From the UHGV virus genome UHGV-0210060: DNA of 40,776 nt. One strand, written 5' to 3'. Made by a program: the position numbers and the translations under genes. How positions within the stretch are numbered: the stretch's first letter is position 1; each line of letters opens with the position of its first letter. This DNA comes from a virus. The notes under the pieces are model-generated. The model ran no database searches. It had not been told where the DNA came from and saw only the letters and a program-made list of their open reading frames with translations. Shown piece by piece: positions 3,501 through 40,759 of the stretch.

Positions 3501-3817
3501 TCCTTCACTTTGATTCCAGCAGCGCGGATGTTTTCCTCATAAGCATCCATTGCATCACCGAAGCCATTGGAATAATCAACAGTAAACCCTTTGGCTAATG
3601 CTTCTCTGCTGTCGATAAACTTTGGCGCGGTTATTTCAATAGCTGCTCGCGATGCCTGCCACGTTTGCCAGTGGCCTTGAATATCGTCCATCACGTATTG
3701 ACCACCAATATCACCACTGCCAATTTCATGGTGATTTTCAGGGTAACGGATAAGGTCTGAAGATTCGCCTCCACGTCGCAACCAACTTTCTTCAAACTGC
3801 TTTCTTGATTCGTCCAT
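3497..3817 (-). CDS. hypothetical protein, paralog A of 2683..3051
   Basis: 106 aa starting MDESRKQFEE; shares WQ(T)WQASRAAIE and NIRAAGIK with paralog B. Confidence 0.6.
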   Translation of the reverse strand: MDESRKQFEESWLRRGGESSDLIRYPENHHEIGSGDIGGQYVMDDIQGHWQTWQASRAAIEITAPKFIDSREALAKGFTVDYSNGFGDAMDAYEENIRAAGIKVKE

Positions 3818-17437: not shown

Positions 17438-17459
17438 ATCCCGCATTTTTATGCGGGAT
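17438..17459 (-). terminator. intrinsic terminator after the tailspike gene
   Basis: ATCCCGCAT-tttt-ATGCGGGAT with a T-run on the minus strand. Confidence 0.7.
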
Positions 17460-17477: not shown

Positions 17478-20183
17478 CTACATTGCCATTAATATAAACA
17501 TAGCCAATTCGTCATAACGAATTCCGTAGCGTCCTCCTGCTTTTTTTACAAGAATCATATCTCCTGTTTTATATTGAGAATAAATTTTCTCACCTGTATC
17601 AGGATCTGTGCTCTCTTCAGTTATCACCTCTTCATCCCATACGTCAGGCCATTCATCGTAACACCAAAAAGCATATTGCTCAGGGTTTAAACCATGCTTT
17701 CTAAGAATATCCCCTACGGTTTGAGCGCCAACGCCAAAATGATACCTGGACGACTCAATTCCTTTGTTATTAATTGAGTCATTAAATTTAAATTTATAGA
17801 TGACTGACTTTATTTCAATAGCGGCATCACGCTCTGCATTAAGAATATCATATCTTGTTTTAAGAGTTTCATCTGATGTATTGATTGACCCGGTTCCTGC
17901 ATAAATAACAGAGCATCTGTTTGATGGCTGTCCAATGGCTTTAACATTATCATCAACAGGAGCTATTTTATTAGCATCTGCCAACCACCAGTCTGTTCCA
18001 TCAGCGTGACCGATTCTTACTCTTATCCCACTTCTAATATTTAAACTTCCAGTATTACTCTGTAAATTACAATCTCCTGACGTTGGTCCAAGCAGTACAG
18101 TTTTACCAACACCACATACTACTCTGGCATTTCCTTTTTGTGATACGAGTCTTGACTCACCTCCTGACTGCTCAGGAAGAGATTTATGGTCTATAAATGC
18201 ATCGCGGGGGTTAAATACACCGTCTCCGGAATTATATCTTCCTCCTGTATAGTTGTTAAATACAGGACCCCAGTCAACGCCATTGCCTTCAGAGCACCCG
18301 ACCATTCTAAGCACTCGAGTATTCCCTGCTGCATATGGTAATGAGCTTGTTGATTGCCGGGAAGCTATCATACGTGCTCCATAACCAATAGCATTACCAC
18401 CATTTATAGTTACATATGCTTGCTGGCTTTCGAAATATGTACTGTAAAAGTTCATATTTCCACAGTCATGTAGATGAATAAGAACATCATCCCATCCCTG
18501 AATGGTTCCTGCATGTACCTGTACACCGCGAACTGGTTCCCCTGAAACCTCCATACACTCTGATGGTCGGCTGAATGGTTGAGACAGGTATTGCGATGTG
18601 GCAAGCAGATGTGTGTGGTGATACAGGCTGGTAATGTAGCAATCGAAAAATTGCGTTCCCGCCATACCAAAGTTATCTATGTCATTTCGCCGTATAGTAG
18701 AACCTACTGTTGCCTCAGAAGCGTTAGACACTCCAGTAAATACTAACTTATCACCGGATACGGATAATCCTGAATAAGTGAAATTCCTGCCTCCAGATCT
18801 TAAAACCCCGGACGTTTCGAAGGTGTGGCTTGCTGACCATGGTATTTCGATAGTGCTGGACGTTACCGCTGTAATTCGGAATACATCATGGGCGCGGATC
18901 GAAATACCCTTGAATCCTTGGAATCTACAGTGATAATAGTTTTCATCCTCGCCCTGAGCGGCCAGCGTGCCAGATACAGGAATGTTCGTTTTTAAAAGTG
19001 CCGTCTTGCGCCAGTATCCAACCACCTGCAAATTGCGGTATTCATTGCCAAAAGACGCACGTGACCAAATACCTACATCCCACTCATCGCCAAGACCGGT
19101 ATTTGCAATGTCTTTATAACCATCCAGCCCATTGAAATATGGAACAACACGAAAGTTCTCAAGGCGAACACATCCTGTCTCAGGCATCAATATTGCGGCA
19201 GAGAATGGTTTAAGCGTGGCTCTTGTAGTCCCATTAGCATCACCGTTAGTAAAATCCAATAAATCATATGATGACGCAGGTGCCGTTGTTGTATACGGGT
19301 CTTCGGAAGATGGGTTAGAAACCACACCACCACTAACATCCATATTAGAAACACAATCTACAGTATATTTTTTATTTCCTACCCCGTACATCAGGAATGT
19401 GGTCCCTGTGGTAATATCAGGAGCAAATGTTGCAGTATATCCTGAGACCCATTTGCCCACACCAAGACAAATTATCCCACCACCAGAAACAGGTGTTAAC
19501 GTATCCGTTATTACATACGCATTATCAGTACCATAAATAACCTTTCCTGTGTTAAGGGCAGCTTGCCACGCGGCCCAGTCTATTGACTGAGATAATGAGT
19601 CAACAAAAGGATATAAGGATTTTGCTTCAGAAATTGAAGAAAACCACTCAGATAATGGATGATATTTCCCATCCCCAATTGCTCCAAATTGTTTTACATT
19701 TAAGAAAAGAGCATTGTTTTCATGCTGAGTTATAGTTGCAGCCCCGGTAAATGGCTGCCTTACCCCAATTAATGCATCACCTTTTGAATCATCATTAATG
19801 TATGCTCCTGATTGAGATAACTGCTCTTTGAAGTCTGGGCCAAACTGATCTGGATCGTATTTTAATACATTTGGAAAATAAAACTGCTGAGTGCCATAAG
19901 CATCGTAAACAGCCATAGAATGGCCTTGCACGGTAACGAATTTGGCAATCTGTCCGTTATATACCGGATAACCAGCAGCGTTAATGATGATGGGTTGCGA
20001 AACAGGAGCGTGAGAACCGTCTTCGTTCTCCACATAAACCTGAATCTGGTTTTCAGGATTTACCGGGTCAGTGTCAATTTTACCGATATAAATTTTGCCA
20101 TTGGCTACGGCTTTAAAAGAACGAGCCATAGTGAAGAGTTGCGAAGGCATGCTTACCACAACATTGGCTGTAATGTCTGTCAT
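17478..20183 (-). CDS. tailspike (P22-type head-binding domain, beta-helix domain, C-terminal intramolecular chaperone)
   Basis: 901 aa; N-terminal ~110 aa match the P22 gp9 head-binding domain ([45 protein letters not shown] ... [12 protein letters not shown] ... NVLKYDPDQ); [10 protein letters not shown] glycosidase-like start; [11 protein letters not shown] near the C-terminus. Confidence 0.85.
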
Positions 20184-20325
20184 TTAATTTGCTCCAGATG
20201 CAAGGAATCGCCGCAGCATGGCTACGGTGAGTATTTGTTTGCTTTTTGCACTACACTTTTTGTGTAGTGCTATCTCTCAAGGCCATAGCCGCTGAGTAGC
20301 TACGATGAATTTTGGGCATAAAAAA

Positions 20326-20343
20326 ACCCAGCCGAAGCTGGGT
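20326..20343 (-). terminator. intrinsic terminator after ant
   Basis: ACCCAGC-cgaa-GCTGGGT flanked by an A-run on plus (U-run on the minus transcript). Confidence 0.65.
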
Positions 20344-20361
20344 TGTCGCGTTGGTTATCTG

Positions 20362-21258: not shown

Positions 21259-21320
21259 GTTGGTTTTTCTCCACGGATTTACCGACAACCGAAGCCCTGA
21301 CTGTTCCAGCAGTTGGGGCT

Positions 21321-21542
21321 TCAACGTTTTTGTAAGTCACTGTAGCTATAAAGCCACTGACCACTCATTTTTGATTTGATTGACTCTACTGAGTCACGGC
21401 AAGGAATGATTCCGCCTGACATCATTCTGATTTCCGTAAATTCACCACTCCTTATCGATTCAATGCCATCAATGTTAACTAAAGATTTACCTCTACCACG
21501 TGCATTCTCATAGCCAATCTCATCAACCTCAATAAACCTCAT
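21321..21542 (-). CDS. hypothetical protein (73 aa) between arc and ant
   Basis: ATG overlaps arc stop (ATGA); no motif recognised. Confidence 0.45.
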
Positions 21543-21805: not shown

Positions 21806-22057
21806 ATGGCAAAGGGTGTGTCAATTTCTCCAACTACGGTAAGAATCCCTGAATCTTTACGCGAAGCTCTTGCTGTCAGAGCATCAAAAAATGGTCGCTC
21901 TGTTAACTCCGAGATCGTCATGATTTTGCAAGCCGCGATTGATGAAGATAGGTCGCCAAAGTCAGTTGAGTCATTTGCTCAGCAAGAAGCTGACAAATTC
22001 AAAGAGGCGCTGCTTGAGACGCTGAGGAACATGCAAGAAAACAAAAAACCCACCTGA
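21806..22057 (+). CDS. mnt: Mnt-like ribbon-helix-helix repressor
   Basis: 83 aa; VRIPESLREALAVRASKNGRSVNSEIVMILQAAI parallels P22 Mnt (FRMPMEVREKLKFRAEANGRSMNSELLQIVQDAL). Confidence 0.75.
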   Translation: MAKGVSISPTTVRIPESLREALAVRASKNGRSVNSEIVMILQAAIDEDRSPKSVESFAQQEADKFKEALLETLRNMQENKKPT

Positions 22058-22067
22058 AGGTGGGTTT
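22046..22067. terminator. bidirectional intrinsic terminator between mnt and the convergent 328-aa gene
   Basis: AAACCCACC-tgaa-GGTGGGTTT flanked by an A-run and a T-run; loop contains the mnt stop codon. Confidence 0.7.
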
Positions 22068-22072
22068 TATAA

Positions 22073-30692: not shown

Positions 30693-30733
30693 TGTCTTCT
30701 CCCAATAAAAATGGGGCCGAAGCCCCACCAAAA

Positions 30734-35189: not shown

Positions 35190-36605
35190 TCAACCTACAC
35201 CACAAGGAATTGAGTAACTGGAATAGTCGGGTTGCGCAGCCGACTCTGGGCAATGCATACACATCATCAGCGCATCAGCCAGGTTAGGAGATGGAATACC
35301 GAGCTTCTGCTTCATTTCGACCTTAGTCATAAGCTCCAGCTTCCCGTTGTTATTGAATTTGCGCTGAATCTGCGTCAGTTCTGCAAACAGCTTCTCCAGC
35401 ATCTTCTCGCCTATCGCCTCTTTGTCGAAACTCAGCATGTAGTCGGGGTCTGCATACTCACCGTGGACAACCGCCCGATATGTCAGATACAGCCTGTCAG
35501 CCAGCGCATAATAGAATTGCGCTCGCTTATTGCGGAACACATCGCCAATAGTGCGAACGTTGTCACCCTGTACGACTTCATCAGCCCATGCTCCGGCCTG
35601 GTAAGGCGCATCTTCATCGAATGGCGATTCGCTACCCTTGAACATCGTGGCGGTGATTTTCTTGCCGGAGAACGCTTCCGTTGTCTGTCTGCGTAGCCCG
35701 GCACCAACACCATCACCATCCCACAGGTAATGGTCAGCGCCGTCTTCAATCGCCAGCGAAGTAGCCCAGTCAGCACCCTCGTTGATGTCCATCAGTAGAC
35801 CTTCGGCAATGCGCTTAACAACCGAACCGTGACGCGATGCGTAACCTTTAGCATCTGGCCCTGTATCTGATGGGTCATGCGCAGAGACAACCGCACCTTT
35901 CGCTTTCCATCCGAGTTTCTTGTGCGCATCGGTAGCAGCTTCAAGCCATTCACGTTTGATGATTGCCATATCACTTGCGCTTACCGGCTCACCAAGCCAG
36001 ATGTGACGATACAGCGTCGGATTTCTGCGTTTGCACTCTTCCATCTCCAGACGGAGGACTTCAGGAAAGTGCGGGTTGTCGGTGTAGTTCACCGTCAGCA
36101 GACAAATATCATCAGGAGGGTTTACGACGAATCGCTGATAGGTATCGTCGAGGATGTTTTTCGGGTTGAAACTTACCCATATTTCAGAGAACGGCTTACG
36201 GATGGTCGGTATCAGAATATCCCATGATTCCTTCGTTACCGCTTCCGCTTCCTCCACCCAGCAGATATCAATGCCTTCGAGAGATTTAATCTTCGTCGGG
36301 TTGTTTTTGATGCCATAGAACATGAATTCAGCATTCGTTCCGAGATGACGAATCATGGAACGCTGAATTTCAAACTCAGCCGAATACCCTTCCCGCTCGA
36401 TGGTGTCTTCAAGCAACCGGATTACCGAATCGCTGATACTGTTTTGCAGTTCACGAGCACAGAGAATACGCACAGGCTGCCGACGAGCCGCTTCAACAAG
36501 CAGCCTCGCAATTGCCCATGATTTACCGCTACCTCGACCGCCTTTGGCGACTTTGTAGCGATGCGCCTCAATGAACGGTTCAAAGATAGGATTAATCGAG
36601 GTCAT
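35190..36605 (-). CDS. terminase large subunit
   Basis: 471 aa; Walker A KGGRGSGKS near the N-terminus; size as Sf6 TerL. Confidence 0.85.
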   Translation of the reverse strand: MTSINPIFEPFIEAHRYKVAKGGRGSGKSWAIARLLVEAARRQPVRILCARELQNSISDSVIRLLEDTIEREGYSAEFEIQRSMIRHLGTNAEFMFYGIKNNPTKIKSLEGIDICWVEEAEAVTKESWDILIPTIRKPFSEIWVSFNPKNILDDTYQRFVVNPPDDICLLTVNYTDNPHFPEVLRLEMEECKRRNPTLYRHIWLGEPVSASDMAIIKREWLEAATDAHKKLGWKAKGAVVSAHDPSDTGPDAKGYASRHGSVVKRIAEGLLMDINEGADWATSLAIEDGADHYLWDGDGVGAGLRRQTTEAFSGKKITATMFKGSESPFDEDAPYQAGAWADEVVQGDNVRTIGDVFRNKRAQFYYALADRLYLTYRAVVHGEYADPDYMLSFDKEAIGEKMLEKLFAELTQIQRKFNNNGKLELMTKVEMKQKLGIPSPNLADALMMCMHCPESAAQPDYSSYSIPCGVG

Positions 36606-37042
36606 TTTCCGAATAGAGTGCTCATCGGTGATGTTTCAATCTGGATTGCGCCGCCGTCTTTGCCTGTTAGCTCGTGATCAACCTTGTCGCGCCATTTATC
36701 CTTCTGTCGATTCTTAAGCCAGAAGATGGCAGCGGTTGTATCAGGCGGGTAATACTTCTCAAGCGGAGTTTCGACAATTCTGTTTTCAATAACACGAATA
36801 TCGATGTCTGGAGCCACGAAGCCCATAGCGCGTTGATAAAGACGATCACTAACTTCTGCATCAGCGACGGCCTTACCCTTTTTTATGGACTCCGAAAACT
36901 TAGGATAATCAAGCTTCCACTTGTTAATAGTTGACTCACTGACTTCAAAGAAATCAGCAAGTTCTGCATCGGTGTAGCCCAGCAAGCACAGTTTGCGTGC
37001 CTGTTCGGCATACGCCTCTTGATACTTTGTTGGGCGCGCCAT
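36602..37042 (-). CDS. terminase small subunit (Sf6 type)
   Basis: 146 aa; C-terminus LTGKDGGAIQIETSPMSTLFGK matches the Sf6 small-terminase C-terminus as recalled; overlaps terL start. Confidence 0.75.
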   Translation of the reverse strand: MARPTKYQEAYAEQARKLCLLGYTDAELADFFEVSESTINKWKLDYPKFSESIKKGKAVADAEVSDRLYQRAMGFVAPDIDIRVIENRIVETPLEKYYPPDTTAAIFWLKNRQKDKWRDKVDHELTGKDGGAIQIETSPMSTLFGK

Positions 37043-37044
37043 GT

Positions 37045-37287
37045 TTATGCTCCGGTAGTGAACAGGTCTAACGCTTCCTTCGATTTACGTACCGCTTCGA
37101 TAGTGCGGGTCGTGATATCTGAATTAGCGCCGCCTGACTGGAAGTGAATTTTGAATAGCTCAAGCTTCAGCTCGTCAGTGCCAATGAATTGAAATGCTTC
37201 TTCTGCGGCTGCGTTCTGGTTCATGACCAGTTTGTAAATCTCTAACTGGAATTTCTGTTCTTCAGTCATGGGAATAATCTCTGCCAT
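37045..37287 (-). CDS. hypothetical protein (80 aa) upstream of terS
   Basis: Co-oriented ORF ending 3 nt before terS; no motif recognised. Confidence 0.5.
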   Translation of the reverse strand: MAEIIPMTEEQKFQLEIYKLVMNQNAAAEEAFQFIGTDELKLELFKIHFQSGGANSDITTRTIEAVRKSKEALDLFTTGA

Positions 37288-37586
37288 TGTTGGCTCCGTT
37301 TATCCGTTAAAAGGGATATCAGTTAAGTTATCCCGTGTAGGGTATAAGCCATTGTCGAGACCATTCATTGAATGGCCTCTGCAATAACCGATGTCTTTCC
37401 ATCAGTCCGCCACCACAAAGAATCTTTTTTGCCATAAGGCAGGAGGTTCATCTTTCAGTGGCTGCCAGTGTTATTTCCCCACTTACTGGCTTGGGTTGTT
37501 TCGCTGTACTGCCGTAACTGGTGACCTAGAATAAATTCCGGTTTCATTATCAAGCCCACCCGTAGATGGGCTTTGTGATGGCATCT

Positions 37587-38111
37587 TCAATTAATCAGCA
37601 ATTCGGGCTGCGTCACCTGCAAGATGTATTCATGCTCGACAGCCAGGACACGCTTCTCTTTCTTCCGTTCGTTCATTAACCGACTGCCGATCGTACCTTT
37701 CAGCTTTGAGCGTGTTTCTTTGATGGCGTAGCGGTGCTGCATTTCTTCGCCAATTGCCATGCGGCGGCTCAGTTGCTCTGCCATCCAGTTGAATGCCGCG
37801 ATATAGCTCTCCTTGATTGCCGCAGCAGCTTTCCCGGTGAACCCCATCACAACCATGATCCAGCCATCTTTCGTCAGGCTGTACATCGGGCGAACCTTGC
37901 CCTGCTCATCGATATAATCAGCCGACGCAAAATTGCGTTGGCTAAACTCACACGAGCAATCAGCCTTAACCTGCTCGATTTTCCTGAGAACATCACCGTG
38001 TCGCTTGCCGAAGTACTTGGCAATTTTTCTGGATGTGGTAACGACCTCTCCGTTTTTGGCTTGCACCATTTCTCGGAAGTCGAAGGCTGGAATAACTGAA
38101 TGATTATTCAT
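37587..38111 (-). CDS. rha: Rha-family phage regulatory protein
   Basis: From internal Met (MNNHSV...): VVTTSRKIAKYFGKRHGDVLRKIE is typical of the Rha N-terminal domain; between lysis and packaging genes as in P22. Confidence 0.7.
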   Translation of the reverse strand: MNNHSVIPAFDFREMVQAKNGEVVTTSRKIAKYFGKRHGDVLRKIEQVKADCSCEFSQRNFASADYIDEQGKVRPMYSLTKDGWIMVVMGFTGKAAAAIKESYIAAFNWMAEQLSRRMAIGEEMQHRYAIKETRSKLKGTIGSRLMNERKKEKRVLAVEHEYILQVTQPELLIN

Positions 38112-38255
38112 GGCGTCTTTACCTTTTAGAAAGTGAGCCTGTCTCACAGAAAAGCCGCCCGAGAGAGGTCGCCACCTATAACGGCATTTCTCAGGCTCGC
38201 TTACTGAAAGGCTCTCGTTTATATGCGCGTGAGATACGCTGTGAAATTCAGATAT

Positions 38256-38279
38256 AAAAAAGCCCCGCGAATGCGAGGC
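38256..38279 (-). terminator. intrinsic terminator between Rz and rha inside the late operon
   Basis: Minus strand GCCTCGC-att-CGCGGGGC (one mismatch) followed by TTTTTT. Confidence 0.55.
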
Positions 38280-38454
38280 TAAATCCTGGTATTTGTAATG
38301 ATCTGGCTCTTATCTCAACGCAACCCCTTACTGCGCGCCAGATGCTCAATATCAAGCATCAGCAATGAGATGTTTAATCTGGATTCACTCCAGAAGCGAT
38401 CACCACCCTGTCTACAGAGCCAGATGTGAAGGATGATGAGTAAAATTATCGCTA

Positions 38455-38922
38455 TCATCGAAGGCATTGCGTCCTGATGTATTCCTGAAGCGTTCTCAGT
38501 GCTGTTTGGTCGCGGATAATTCCGTCCCGGATACCGAGAACGTTTCGTCCAGCAACTGGAGAGAGTTCGACGGTGGCATCATTGCCCATGCCGGAGGCGC
38601 TGGAGGTTTCGTCTGAGGATGGCACAGGGCATTTTCCTTTGACGAGCACCCTGCCACCATTATCAAGCTTCCGCCGAAGAGCATCATTTTCAGCTTTCGC
38701 ATCAGCTAACTCCTTCGTGTATTTAGCATCAAGTGCATCAGCATCACGCTGGCGCTGCTGCATGTCAGTAATGGTGGCGGTCGCCTGCTTCAGCTCACTG
38801 ACTTTTTTATCGCGCTGTTCTTTGTAGGCGATGGCGTTATCACGGTAATGATTAACAGCCCATGACAGGCAGACGATGACGCAGATAACCAGAGCGGAGA
38901 TAATCGCGGTGACTCTGCTCAT
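38455..38922 (-). CDS. Rz: Rz i-spanin
   Basis: [34 protein letters not shown]...[20 protein letters not shown] is lambda Rz-like. Confidence 0.9.
38496..38702 (-). CDS. Rz1: Rz1 o-spanin lipoprotein embedded in Rz in another frame
   Basis: [22 protein letters not shown]... with lipobox-like VAGC and proline-rich PPAPPAW, as in lambda Rz1. Confidence 0.8.
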
Positions 38923-40002: not shown

Positions 40003-40030
40003 AAAGCCCCGAGCTATTAACTCAGGGCTT
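40003..40030 (-). terminator. tR'-like intrinsic terminator ~55 nt downstream of pR'
   Basis: Minus strand GCCCTGAG-ttaatag-CTCGGGGC + TTTTT. Confidence 0.7.
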
Positions 40031-40064
40031 TATTTAACGAGTGCATTTATCCATCGTTGGGTCA

Positions 40065-40093
40065 AATTTACCCAAATTTATTCAAAAAGTCAA
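40065..40093 (-). promoter_or_regulatory. late promoter pR' with qut region
   Basis: Minus strand TTGACT-17-TAAATT followed by ACGATGGATAAATGCACTCG, closely similar to the lambda pR' initial transcribed region. Confidence 0.75.
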
Positions 40094-40135: not shown

Positions 40136-40759
40136 CTAACGTGTGACAGCATTCAAAATGTTGTCTGCGATTGACTCTTCTTTGTGGCATTGCACCACCA
40201 GAGCGTCATACAGCGGCTTAACAGTGCGTGACCAGGTGGGTTGAGTAAGGTTTGGGATTAGCATCGTTACAGCGCGATATGCGGCGCTTGCTGGCATCCT
40301 TGAATAACCGACGCCTTTGCATCTTCCGCACTCTTTCTCGACAACTCTCCCCCACTGCTCTGTTTTTGCTATATCAACCGCACGGCCTGTACCGTGGCAA
40401 TCTCTGCACCTTGCTCCCGGCGTCGCGGCACTACGGCAATAATCCGCATAAGCGAATGTTGCGAGCACTTGCAGTACCTTTGCCTTAGTATTTCCTTCAA
40501 GCTTTGCAACGCCACGGTATTTCCCCGATACCTTGTGTGCAAATTGCATCAGATAGTTGATAGCCTTTTGTTTGTCGTTCTGGCTGAGTTCATGCTTACC
40601 GCAGAATGCAGCCATTCCGAATCCGGCTTGTGATTGCGCCATCCCCATAGCAGCCATCACATCAGTACCGGAAAGAGAGTCAGAAGCCGTAGCCCGTGGT
40701 GAGTCGCTCATCATCGGGCTTTTTGGCGAATGAAATTTAGCTACGCTTTCGAGTCTCAT
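40136..40759 (-). CDS. Q: late antiterminator Q (lambda type)
   Basis: 207 aa; MRLESVAKFHSPKSPMMSDSPRATASDSLSGTDVMAAMGMAQSQAGFGMAAFCGKHELSQNDKQKAINYLMQFAHK... essentially lambda Q. Confidence 0.95.
   Translation of the reverse strand: MRLESVAKFHSPKSPMMSDSPRATASDSLSGTDVMAAMGMAQSQAGFGMAAFCGKHELSQNDKQKAINYLMQFAHKVSGKYRGVAKLEGNTKAKVLQVLATFAYADYCRSAATPGARCRDCHGTGRAVDIAKTEQWGRVVEKECGRCKGVGYSRMPASAAYRAVTMLIPNLTQPTWSRTVKPLYDALVVQCHKEESIADNILNAVTR

Follow-up and report, generated by a model that had tools for sequence, protein, structure and literature searches.

A predicted Rho-independent terminator at the edge of an exchangeable cassette with a structured leader RNA in the late operon of a P22-like phage

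The DNA analyzed here (UHGV virus genome UHGV-0210060; the whole stretch of 40,776 nucleotides is referred to as the window) is that of a P22-like (Lederbergvirus) phage or prophage of Escherichia coli. For the region around the terminator described below, the closest public relative is phage phiv205-1, with 97.6% identity over 1.95 kb. A sar antisense RNA on the plus strand (21259..21326; Rfam RF00262, 88 bits) marks a P22-type immI/ant region. The late genes are encoded on the minus strand in the order Q, PR'-like promoter, tR'-like terminator, holin, endolysin, Rz/Rz1, a 50-aa ORF (orf50), the hairpin that is the subject of this study, and rha. These are followed by an ORF-poor stretch of approximately 300 bp, a DUF2560 gene, terS, terL, portal, scaffold, and coat. 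The elements on which the analysis relies are as follows:

40136..40759, minus strand: late antiterminator Q of the λ type (full-length match to PDB 7UBM chain Q, E = 1.8e-138)
40093..40065, minus strand: PR'-like promoter (TTGACT-17-TAAATT), upstream of the lysis genes
40031..40003, minus strand: tR'-like terminator with a 13-bp stem, upstream of the lysis genes
38455..38922, minus strand: Rz spanin, the last known lysis gene (phrog_13, E = 2.8e-75)
38702..38496, minus strand: Rz1, embedded in Rz
38315..38467, minus strand: orf50 (phrog_11822, E = 2.7e-36), a homologue of Sf6 gene 65 and ε34 gp67
37587..38111, minus strand: rha, encoding a Phage_pRha protein of 174 aa (Pfam PF09669, E = 4e-28; phrog_518)
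37287..37045, minus strand: DUF2560 gene (phrog_571 and phrog_309 for the pair formed by this gene and terS)
37042..36602, minus strand: small terminase subunit gene (terS), which together with the DUF2560 gene (36602..37287) opens the packaging genes

An earlier, sequence-only reading had reported a GC-rich hairpin with a U-run on the coding strand at 38256..38279, located after Rz and before rha and terS. Our analysis recovered this structure at 38280..38256, that is, within one base of the position given. The order of the genes also held, with the correction that the hairpin does not directly follow Rz, because the 50-aa ORF (38467..38315) intervenes. The hairpin has two parts:

38261..38280, minus strand: terminator stem-loop, composed of AGCCTCGC (38280..38273), a 4-nt ATTC loop (38272..38269), and GCGGGGCT (38268..38261), with 8 bp, of which six are G-C and one is G·U
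38252..38260, minus strand: U-tract TTTTTATAT, directly 3' of the stem, consisting of TTTTT (38260..38256) and then ATAT, which makes six U when the stem-closing U at 38261 is included

The hairpin by itself has a predicted ΔG of −13.6 kcal/mol. It is intergenic, 34 nt past the stop codon of orf50 and 143 nt ahead of the rha ATG, all on the minus strand. On the plus strand, the stem is followed by AAATCC and not by a T-run, meaning that the predicted terminator is one-way and belongs to the late strand. Terminator-like sites of this quality (stem of at least 7 bp, at least five G-C pairs, and at least six T in eight positions) occur nine times in the window, compared with 0.125 ± 0.33 times per shuffle in 40 dinucleotide shuffles, and the folding energy of the 76-nt context is unremarkable (z = −1.55). 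Every sequence hallmark of a Rho-independent terminator is present on the strand along which the late operon is transcribed, and the hairpin is predicted to be such a terminator. The terminator as such is ordinary, routine, and already known, the orthologous site being annotated in several phage records. The window contains further strong intrinsic-terminator-like sites on the minus (late) strand, at 30711..30728, 22045..22068, 20325..20344, and 17438..17459. The first of these (30728..30711) lies directly after the coat gene, two of the four bracket the ant/sar region, and one follows a 901-aa ORF (17478..20183) that probably encodes the tailspike.

Polymerase modified by Q is expected to read through terminators of this kind, as established for λ and P22. 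Because the window contains a λ-type Q, a PR'-like promoter, and a tR'-like terminator, such read-through is expected at the hairpin too, as a textbook expectation carried over to this locus. In a promoter scan of the late strand, no σ70-type promoter was called from the terminator to terS, and the downstream genes would therefore need read-through. It had been proposed that the hairpin makes the expression of the packaging and head genes dependent on Q. This part of the sequence-only reading is not supported, since the tR'-like terminator (40031..40003) already gates the operon and imposes Q dependence, to which the hairpin adds none. The putative terminator thus resembles λ tR' and the λ late terminators downstream of it in being an intrinsic terminator inside a Q-controlled late operon. 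It differs from tR' in its location, 1.7 kb downstream of the tR'-like site and after the lysis genes, and it would not be the regulatory terminator of the Q switch.

The same terminator is found in related phages. The orthologous site is annotated as a “Rho-independent terminator” in ε34 (EU570103 41071..41094), as a “putative rightward transcription terminator” in φ80 (JX871397 43609..43631), and as a “terminator” in the records of HK639, HK106, and Ayreon. P22 has a terminator-like hairpin at the orthologous site, GCCTCGC-AGAT-GCGGGGC followed by GTTTTTGT, which is unannotated. These terminators share the position, after Rz or orf50 and ahead of an rha-type gene, and the stem family CCTCGC/GCGGGG. 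The loop is ATTC here and ATTT, GAT, AATA, or AGAT in the orthologues, and there are no other differences of substance. In phage L and Sf6, no sense-strand terminator was found between Rz (or orf50) and the spacer that precedes the DUF2560 gene, so the late operon works without it.

Previous work on the genome of phage L has noted that terminators are common inside the P22-like late operon with its single promoter and that their role is not known; as possible roles, it suggests that they terminate transcription partially or that they halt polymerases which set out without being antiterminated (PMC8022706). Following the former suggestion, raised in that paper for intra-operon terminators generally, the hairpin could be a partial terminator even for Q-modified polymerase, which would set a fixed ratio between lysis RNA and the downstream accessory and packaging RNA. 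The ε34 paper points in the same direction, in that the level of P22 tailspike is described as controlled by read-through of the ant region (PMC2629481). We consider partial termination quite improbable at this locus, given that the genes for portal, scaffold, and coat, proteins required in much greater quantity than those for lysis, all lie downstream of the hairpin, and that the relatives without the terminator (L and Sf6) share the gene order. Moreover, λ Q complexes are highly terminator-resistant, which also counts against it.

The gene immediately upstream of the terminator, orf50, encodes a protein with a hydrophobic N-terminal stretch and shares 13 nt with the end of Rz. The gene is conserved and was found in 39 of 113 related loci. 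The distance of only 34 nt between the orf50 stop and the hairpin, and the existence of an orf50-terminator unit without the leader in phage Ayreon, could mean that the hairpin marks the end of a separate, short orf50 transcript made from its own promoter inside Rz, as in a classical moron, which has its terminator downstream. We regard this as highly improbable: the scan showed no promoter-like site on the late strand inside Rz, the 13-nt overlap is what one would expect for co-translated operon genes, and both φ80 and HK639 have the terminator while lacking orf50.

The regions flanking the hairpin are of greater interest. Judged from the sequences compared here, the hairpin is the 5' edge of an exchangeable cassette made up of the terminator, a structured leader of 137 nt, and a single gene, which in the window is rha. 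The additional features that define this cassette are as follows:

38292..38300, minus strand: left flanking direct repeat, CATTACAAA
38109..38245, minus strand: leader RNA, 137 nt, ending at the rha ATG (38111..38109)
37572..37580, minus strand: right flanking repeat, CATCACAAA, which reads CATTACAAA in HK97, L, HK620, and Sf6

A BLAST search with the 321-bp region revealed two independently distributed modules that overlap exactly at the hairpin. One module, Rz-orf50-terminator, is found in Ayreon, HF4s, and PhiR40_1, and the other, comprising the terminator and 130 nt downstream of it, in φ80, HK106, HK639, and many Stx phages. Behind the conserved leader, the coding sequence changes abruptly, and at least 10 different cargo genes were found in this position, encoding several divergent Rha proteins, KilA-N, ANT, T5orf172/MUG113, HNH, and unknown proteins. 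Upstream of the leader, an Rz like that of the window is present in 88 of 113 loci, the rest having other spanins, a Q-type gene, or a structural gene.

In the window, the repeats flank the terminator-leader-rha unit. Sf6 reads straight through (...CAGTTCATTACAAAGCCTATC...) and represents the exact empty site, and the unit is also absent from phage L. In Ayreon, the terminator is kept without leader or cargo and is joined to the following sequence at the flanking-repeat motif after the terminator. This distribution suggests that the cassette may be gained or lost by recombination at the short flanking repeat motif. Since Sf6 and L lack the cassette as a unit, the terminator is no intrinsic part of the transition from lysis to packaging genes; judging from Ayreon, the putative terminator is not strictly tied to the cassette either.

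Three scans of viral contigs yielded 241 copies of the leader segment (132 of them unique), and 125 were analyzed for an upstream hairpin. A terminator-like hairpin was found at most about 60 nt upstream in 120 of these 125 copies. The hairpins have at least eight different stems, including CTCGC/GCGGG, CCTGAC/GTCGGG, CCCGG/CCGGG, and CCAGC/GCTGG, as well as a compensatory variant, CTTGC/GCAGG, and many different loops, and the U-run is kept in nearly all stem variants. As the sequence of the stem is replaced while its form and place are kept, selection would act on the combination of hairpin and U-run and not on the sequence. The conservation of form and place despite sequence change argues for a function of the predicted terminator. 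It also bears on the idea that the hairpin is a functionless passenger, conserved only as a linker for homologous recombination between mosaic modules. While the exact overlap of the two modules at the hairpin and the short repeats that flank the cassette would fit this idea, a passive linker would be expected to keep its sequence, whereas the stem has been replaced many times, with the hairpin-plus-U-run form and its position being kept. We give the passenger explanation little credence.

With its exchangeable content, its own terminator, and its presence or absence between the same neighbors, the cassette resembles the accessory units known as lambdoid morons (the concept developed for HK97 and HK022; P22 pid provides a comparison, PMC3573128, PMC8835761). 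Presence or absence between conserved neighbors was indeed observed, as shown by the empty site of Sf6 and by phage L, which is without the cassette. Unlike morons, the cassette has its terminator upstream of the gene and not downstream, and no conserved promoter of its own was found. It also runs in the direction of the operon, and expression from the late transcript is probable. At the downstream end, the hairpin that follows the rha stop (37573..37552) is succeeded by GATAATGAAAC, with no sense U-run. Between the terminator and rha, no promoter passed the promoter scan. By eye, a promoter-like TTCACA (38245..38240) and TATAAA (38223..38218) can be discerned, separated by a 16-nt spacer and lacking a T at −7. 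As this TTCACA-16-TATAAA arrangement is confined to one leader type and not conserved in the others, a conserved cassette promoter was rejected.

The leader RNA is predicted to form a small hairpin (38239..38225; GCGU-N7-GCGC) followed by a long, imperfect hairpin (38212..38121) of about 30 bp with an apical GGU-GGCG-ACC. In the basal part of the long hairpin, CCUUU (38211..38207) pairs with the Shine-Dalgarno sequence of rha, AAAGG (38126..38122). All leader types have the Shine-Dalgarno sequence within the basal helix, the pairing being CCUA/UAGG or CCUUA/UAAGG in the divergent ones. The alignment of the leaders indicates that rha starts at the ATG 38111..38109, and that the 186-aa ORF beginning with a GTG at 38147 over-extends into the leader.

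Several lines of evidence support this structure. Compared with shuffled sequences, the leader fold has a z score of −3.70 (0 of 200 shuffles), and RNAalifold predicted the same helices for 35 diverse leaders. In the plain MAFFT alignment of these leaders, 99.2% of the cells are paired, and compensatory (two-sided) changes were observed in 10 of 29 pairs, compared with 2.9 ± 1.3 in column shuffles (0 of 500) and one to four in slid controls. When divergent leaders were included, compensatory changes were seen in 24 of 29 pairs, versus 8.4 ± 1.8 in shuffles and five to ten in slid controls, in an alignment that was fitted to the model and thus favors the structure. A covariance model of the leader, built from the plain alignment, scored 150.5 bits on the late strand and 25.7 bits on the antisense strand; the frequent G·U pairs together with this strand asymmetry place the structure in the late-sense RNA. 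Searching the window with the covariance model gave no extra leader copies, only an antisense echo of the same hairpin.

Divergent leaders were detected before rha in P22 (56.5 bits; 1203-1347 in locus L129) and before the KilA-N gene in HK97 (50.8 bits; 177-320 in locus L324). Some phages have second leader copies, namely φ80 (3628-3747 in locus L006), an Stx2 phage (654-793 in locus L008), and several viral contigs, and in phages with two copies, each copy precedes a different gene. For P22 rha, the model puts the start at an ATG that is 23 codons downstream of the annotated one (1345 versus 1276 in locus L129; 39644 versus 39575 in NC_002371). With this downstream start, the annotated N-terminus would fall inside the leader hairpin.

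Two other roles for parts of the leader were considered and rejected. One was that GCCGUU...GGCGGC and the UUUUCUGUG after it constitute another terminator, or an attenuator, within the leader; this was discarded because the apparent “U-tract” co-varies as a strand of a helix, its counterpart being GUUCCUGUA in Klebsiella types and AUGUCUGCG in HK97. A leader peptide, encoded by the mini-ORF AUG CCG UUA UAG, is not conserved, with CUG being found in other types.

A search of the window and ten related loci against Rfam 15, using both gathering and relaxed thresholds, gave no family for the terminator region, the leader, or the spacer. At the gathering score, the only matches were the sar RNA in the window and tRNAs in Sf6, and the matches obtained with relaxed thresholds were at chance level (mir-627, 19 bits; Proteo-phage-1, 18.6 bits compared with a gathering score of 42). 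With the terminator and leader together as a 186-nt query, a search of 5426 complete E. coli genomes gave similar sequence in 1861. The match spans 80% or more of the query in 728 of these genomes, and many of the others match the terminator end only. The PGAP annotation of E. coli genomes lists nothing at the leader.

The λ N leader and the intercistronic R sites of T7 are leaders that sequester the Shine-Dalgarno sequence and are processed by RNase III. The leader described here resembles them in that a polycistronic phage RNA folds into a long, imperfect hairpin of about 30 bp that takes in the ribosome-binding site of the next gene. It has no sequence relationship with the λ N leader or the T7 R sites, and both cleavage by RNase III and an effect on translation are hypothetical in the present case. 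Another related system is λ sib/tI retroregulation, in which a terminator likewise lies beside structured RNA in an antiterminated transcript. The sib terminator hairpin, however, itself reaches into the RNase III site, and its target is the gene upstream, whereas the present locus has a terminator distinct from the long hairpin, in which it is the ribosome-binding site of the following gene that is paired.

The order of the elements, that is, a stable hairpin, the single-stranded UUUUUUAUAUCUGAAUUUCAC, and then the small and the long leader hairpins, would also suit an arrangement in which the hairpin serves as RNA punctuation and not as a polymerase stop. Endonucleolytic cleavage in the AU-rich linker would leave the terminator to shield the 3' end of the lysis mRNA and the leader hairpins to shield the 5' end of the downstream RNA, giving the two portions of the long late transcript different lifetimes. 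Such a role would be compatible with Q-modified polymerase, which would ignore the terminator anyway, and the terminator hairpin of P22 pid is needed for transcript stability (PMC8835761). On the other hand, a pure 3'-end stabilizer needs no U-run, and the U-run is kept in nearly all stem variants. We judge punctuation to be rather unlikely as the main role of the hairpin.

The region between rha and the DUF2560 gene contains two further features:

37288..37586, minus strand: spacer separating rha from the DUF2560 gene, conserved and highly structured
37328..37435, minus strand: 35-codon ORF (MAKKILCGGGLMERH...), a truncated N-terminus of ST64T/L orf118

The sequence-only reading had placed this ORF-poor stretch of approximately 300 bp right after the terminator and had singled out a 15-bp palindrome, CCATTCATTGAATGG, within it. 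The stretch exists, but it follows rha (38111..37587), which puts it some 670 nt past the terminator. The palindrome is present as well, at 37361..37375, but is not above chance by itself, as eight palindromes of this size occur in the window compared with 6.0 ± 2.2 in shuffles. Spacer and palindrome show no link to the terminator. The spacer is kept at 80 to 99% identity in 206 phage records, mostly unannotated, which include siphoviruses (HK97 and HK022) and podoviruses (P22, Sf6, and L). Its predicted fold has a z score of −5.25 in the late sense and −3.08 in the antisense direction. The spacer begins with the aforementioned hairpin after the rha stop, and the palindrome forms the apex of another hairpin (37379..37357). 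Substitutions in the latter across phages all keep the late-sense pairing by means of G·U pairs, with only five or six events, most of which are also synonymous. The palindrome was rejected as a protein-binding site because its occurrence is not above chance; an RNA hairpin in the truncated orf118 N-terminus, with the palindrome at its apex, accounts for it better. The 35-codon ORF has no evident Shine-Dalgarno sequence, its stop positions differ in P22, HK97, and ε34, and it is probably a gene remnant. The weak Proteo-phage-1 match lies at 37460..37523 and is below a credible threshold. P22 carries the antisense pid moron as an insertion immediately downstream of the spacer segment. A pid-like antisense moron in the gap of the window was rejected, since 37288..37340 is the empty form compared with P22 (2060-2700 in locus L129); pid and its promoter are absent from the window.

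The computed results concern the anatomy of the locus, the conservation of position with replacement of the stem, the structure and covariation of the leader, and the presence or absence of the cassette. Termination, Q read-through, insulation, translational repression, and any processing are inferred from what is established for λ and P22. In the explanation that we favor, and which we hold with moderate confidence as a whole, a functional late-strand terminator heads the cassette and insulates the cassette and the packaging genes, is read through under the control of Q, and is backed up by a translational lock in the leader. Polymerase without Q, which may have leaked through tR' or started by stray initiation within the lysis genes, would halt at the terminator (38261..38256). 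This halt would keep the cassette gene and the packaging genes silent, both in the lysogen and early in infection. Polymerase modified by Q and coming from PR' would ignore the hairpin as it ignores tR' and would go on into rha, terS, and the head genes. The leader would act as a second, translational lock: as the Shine-Dalgarno sequence of the cassette gene is paired within the long hairpin, little protein would be made until the helix is opened or cut, RNase III being the most natural candidate for the cutting.

The contribution of the terminator would, plausibly, be to shield the cassette gene, together with those located further downstream, against leaky or stray transcription, and we offer its added value beyond tR' as a hypothesis. 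The φ80 record carries a note that DNA synthesis in IHF− hosts is inhibited by rha, which makes it plausible that silence is of advantage. Literature searches on rha in connection with IHF or φ80, on AgvB and terminase, and on the leader sequence returned nothing relevant. The membership of the cargo in antirepressor/KilA-type families, in combination with the note on φ80 rha, makes such caution plausible without proving it, the toxicity of the Rha encoded in the window being assumed.

The structured leader and the cassette, although an incidental result of this analysis, are more interesting than the terminator. Tentatively, and with a confidence that falls somewhat short of even, we propose that the terminator and the leader together form an undescribed and widespread “double-lock” control cassette of enterobacterial temperate phages, and that the leader represents a new family of cis-regulatory RNAs. 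The terminator would admit only Q-modified polymerase, and the leader hairpin would mask the ribosome-binding site of any accessory gene exchanged into the cassette, possibly to be opened by RNase III or another trans-acting factor.

The anatomy of the cassette provides a concrete case for the question raised in the phage L paper as to the purpose of terminators inside antiterminated late operons. The leader is of help in annotation, since it fixes the true start codons of the cargo genes, probably including that of P22 rha. If the leader controls translation or processing, this would explain how these phages can safely carry potentially harmful genes of the Rha, KilA-N, and antirepressor types.
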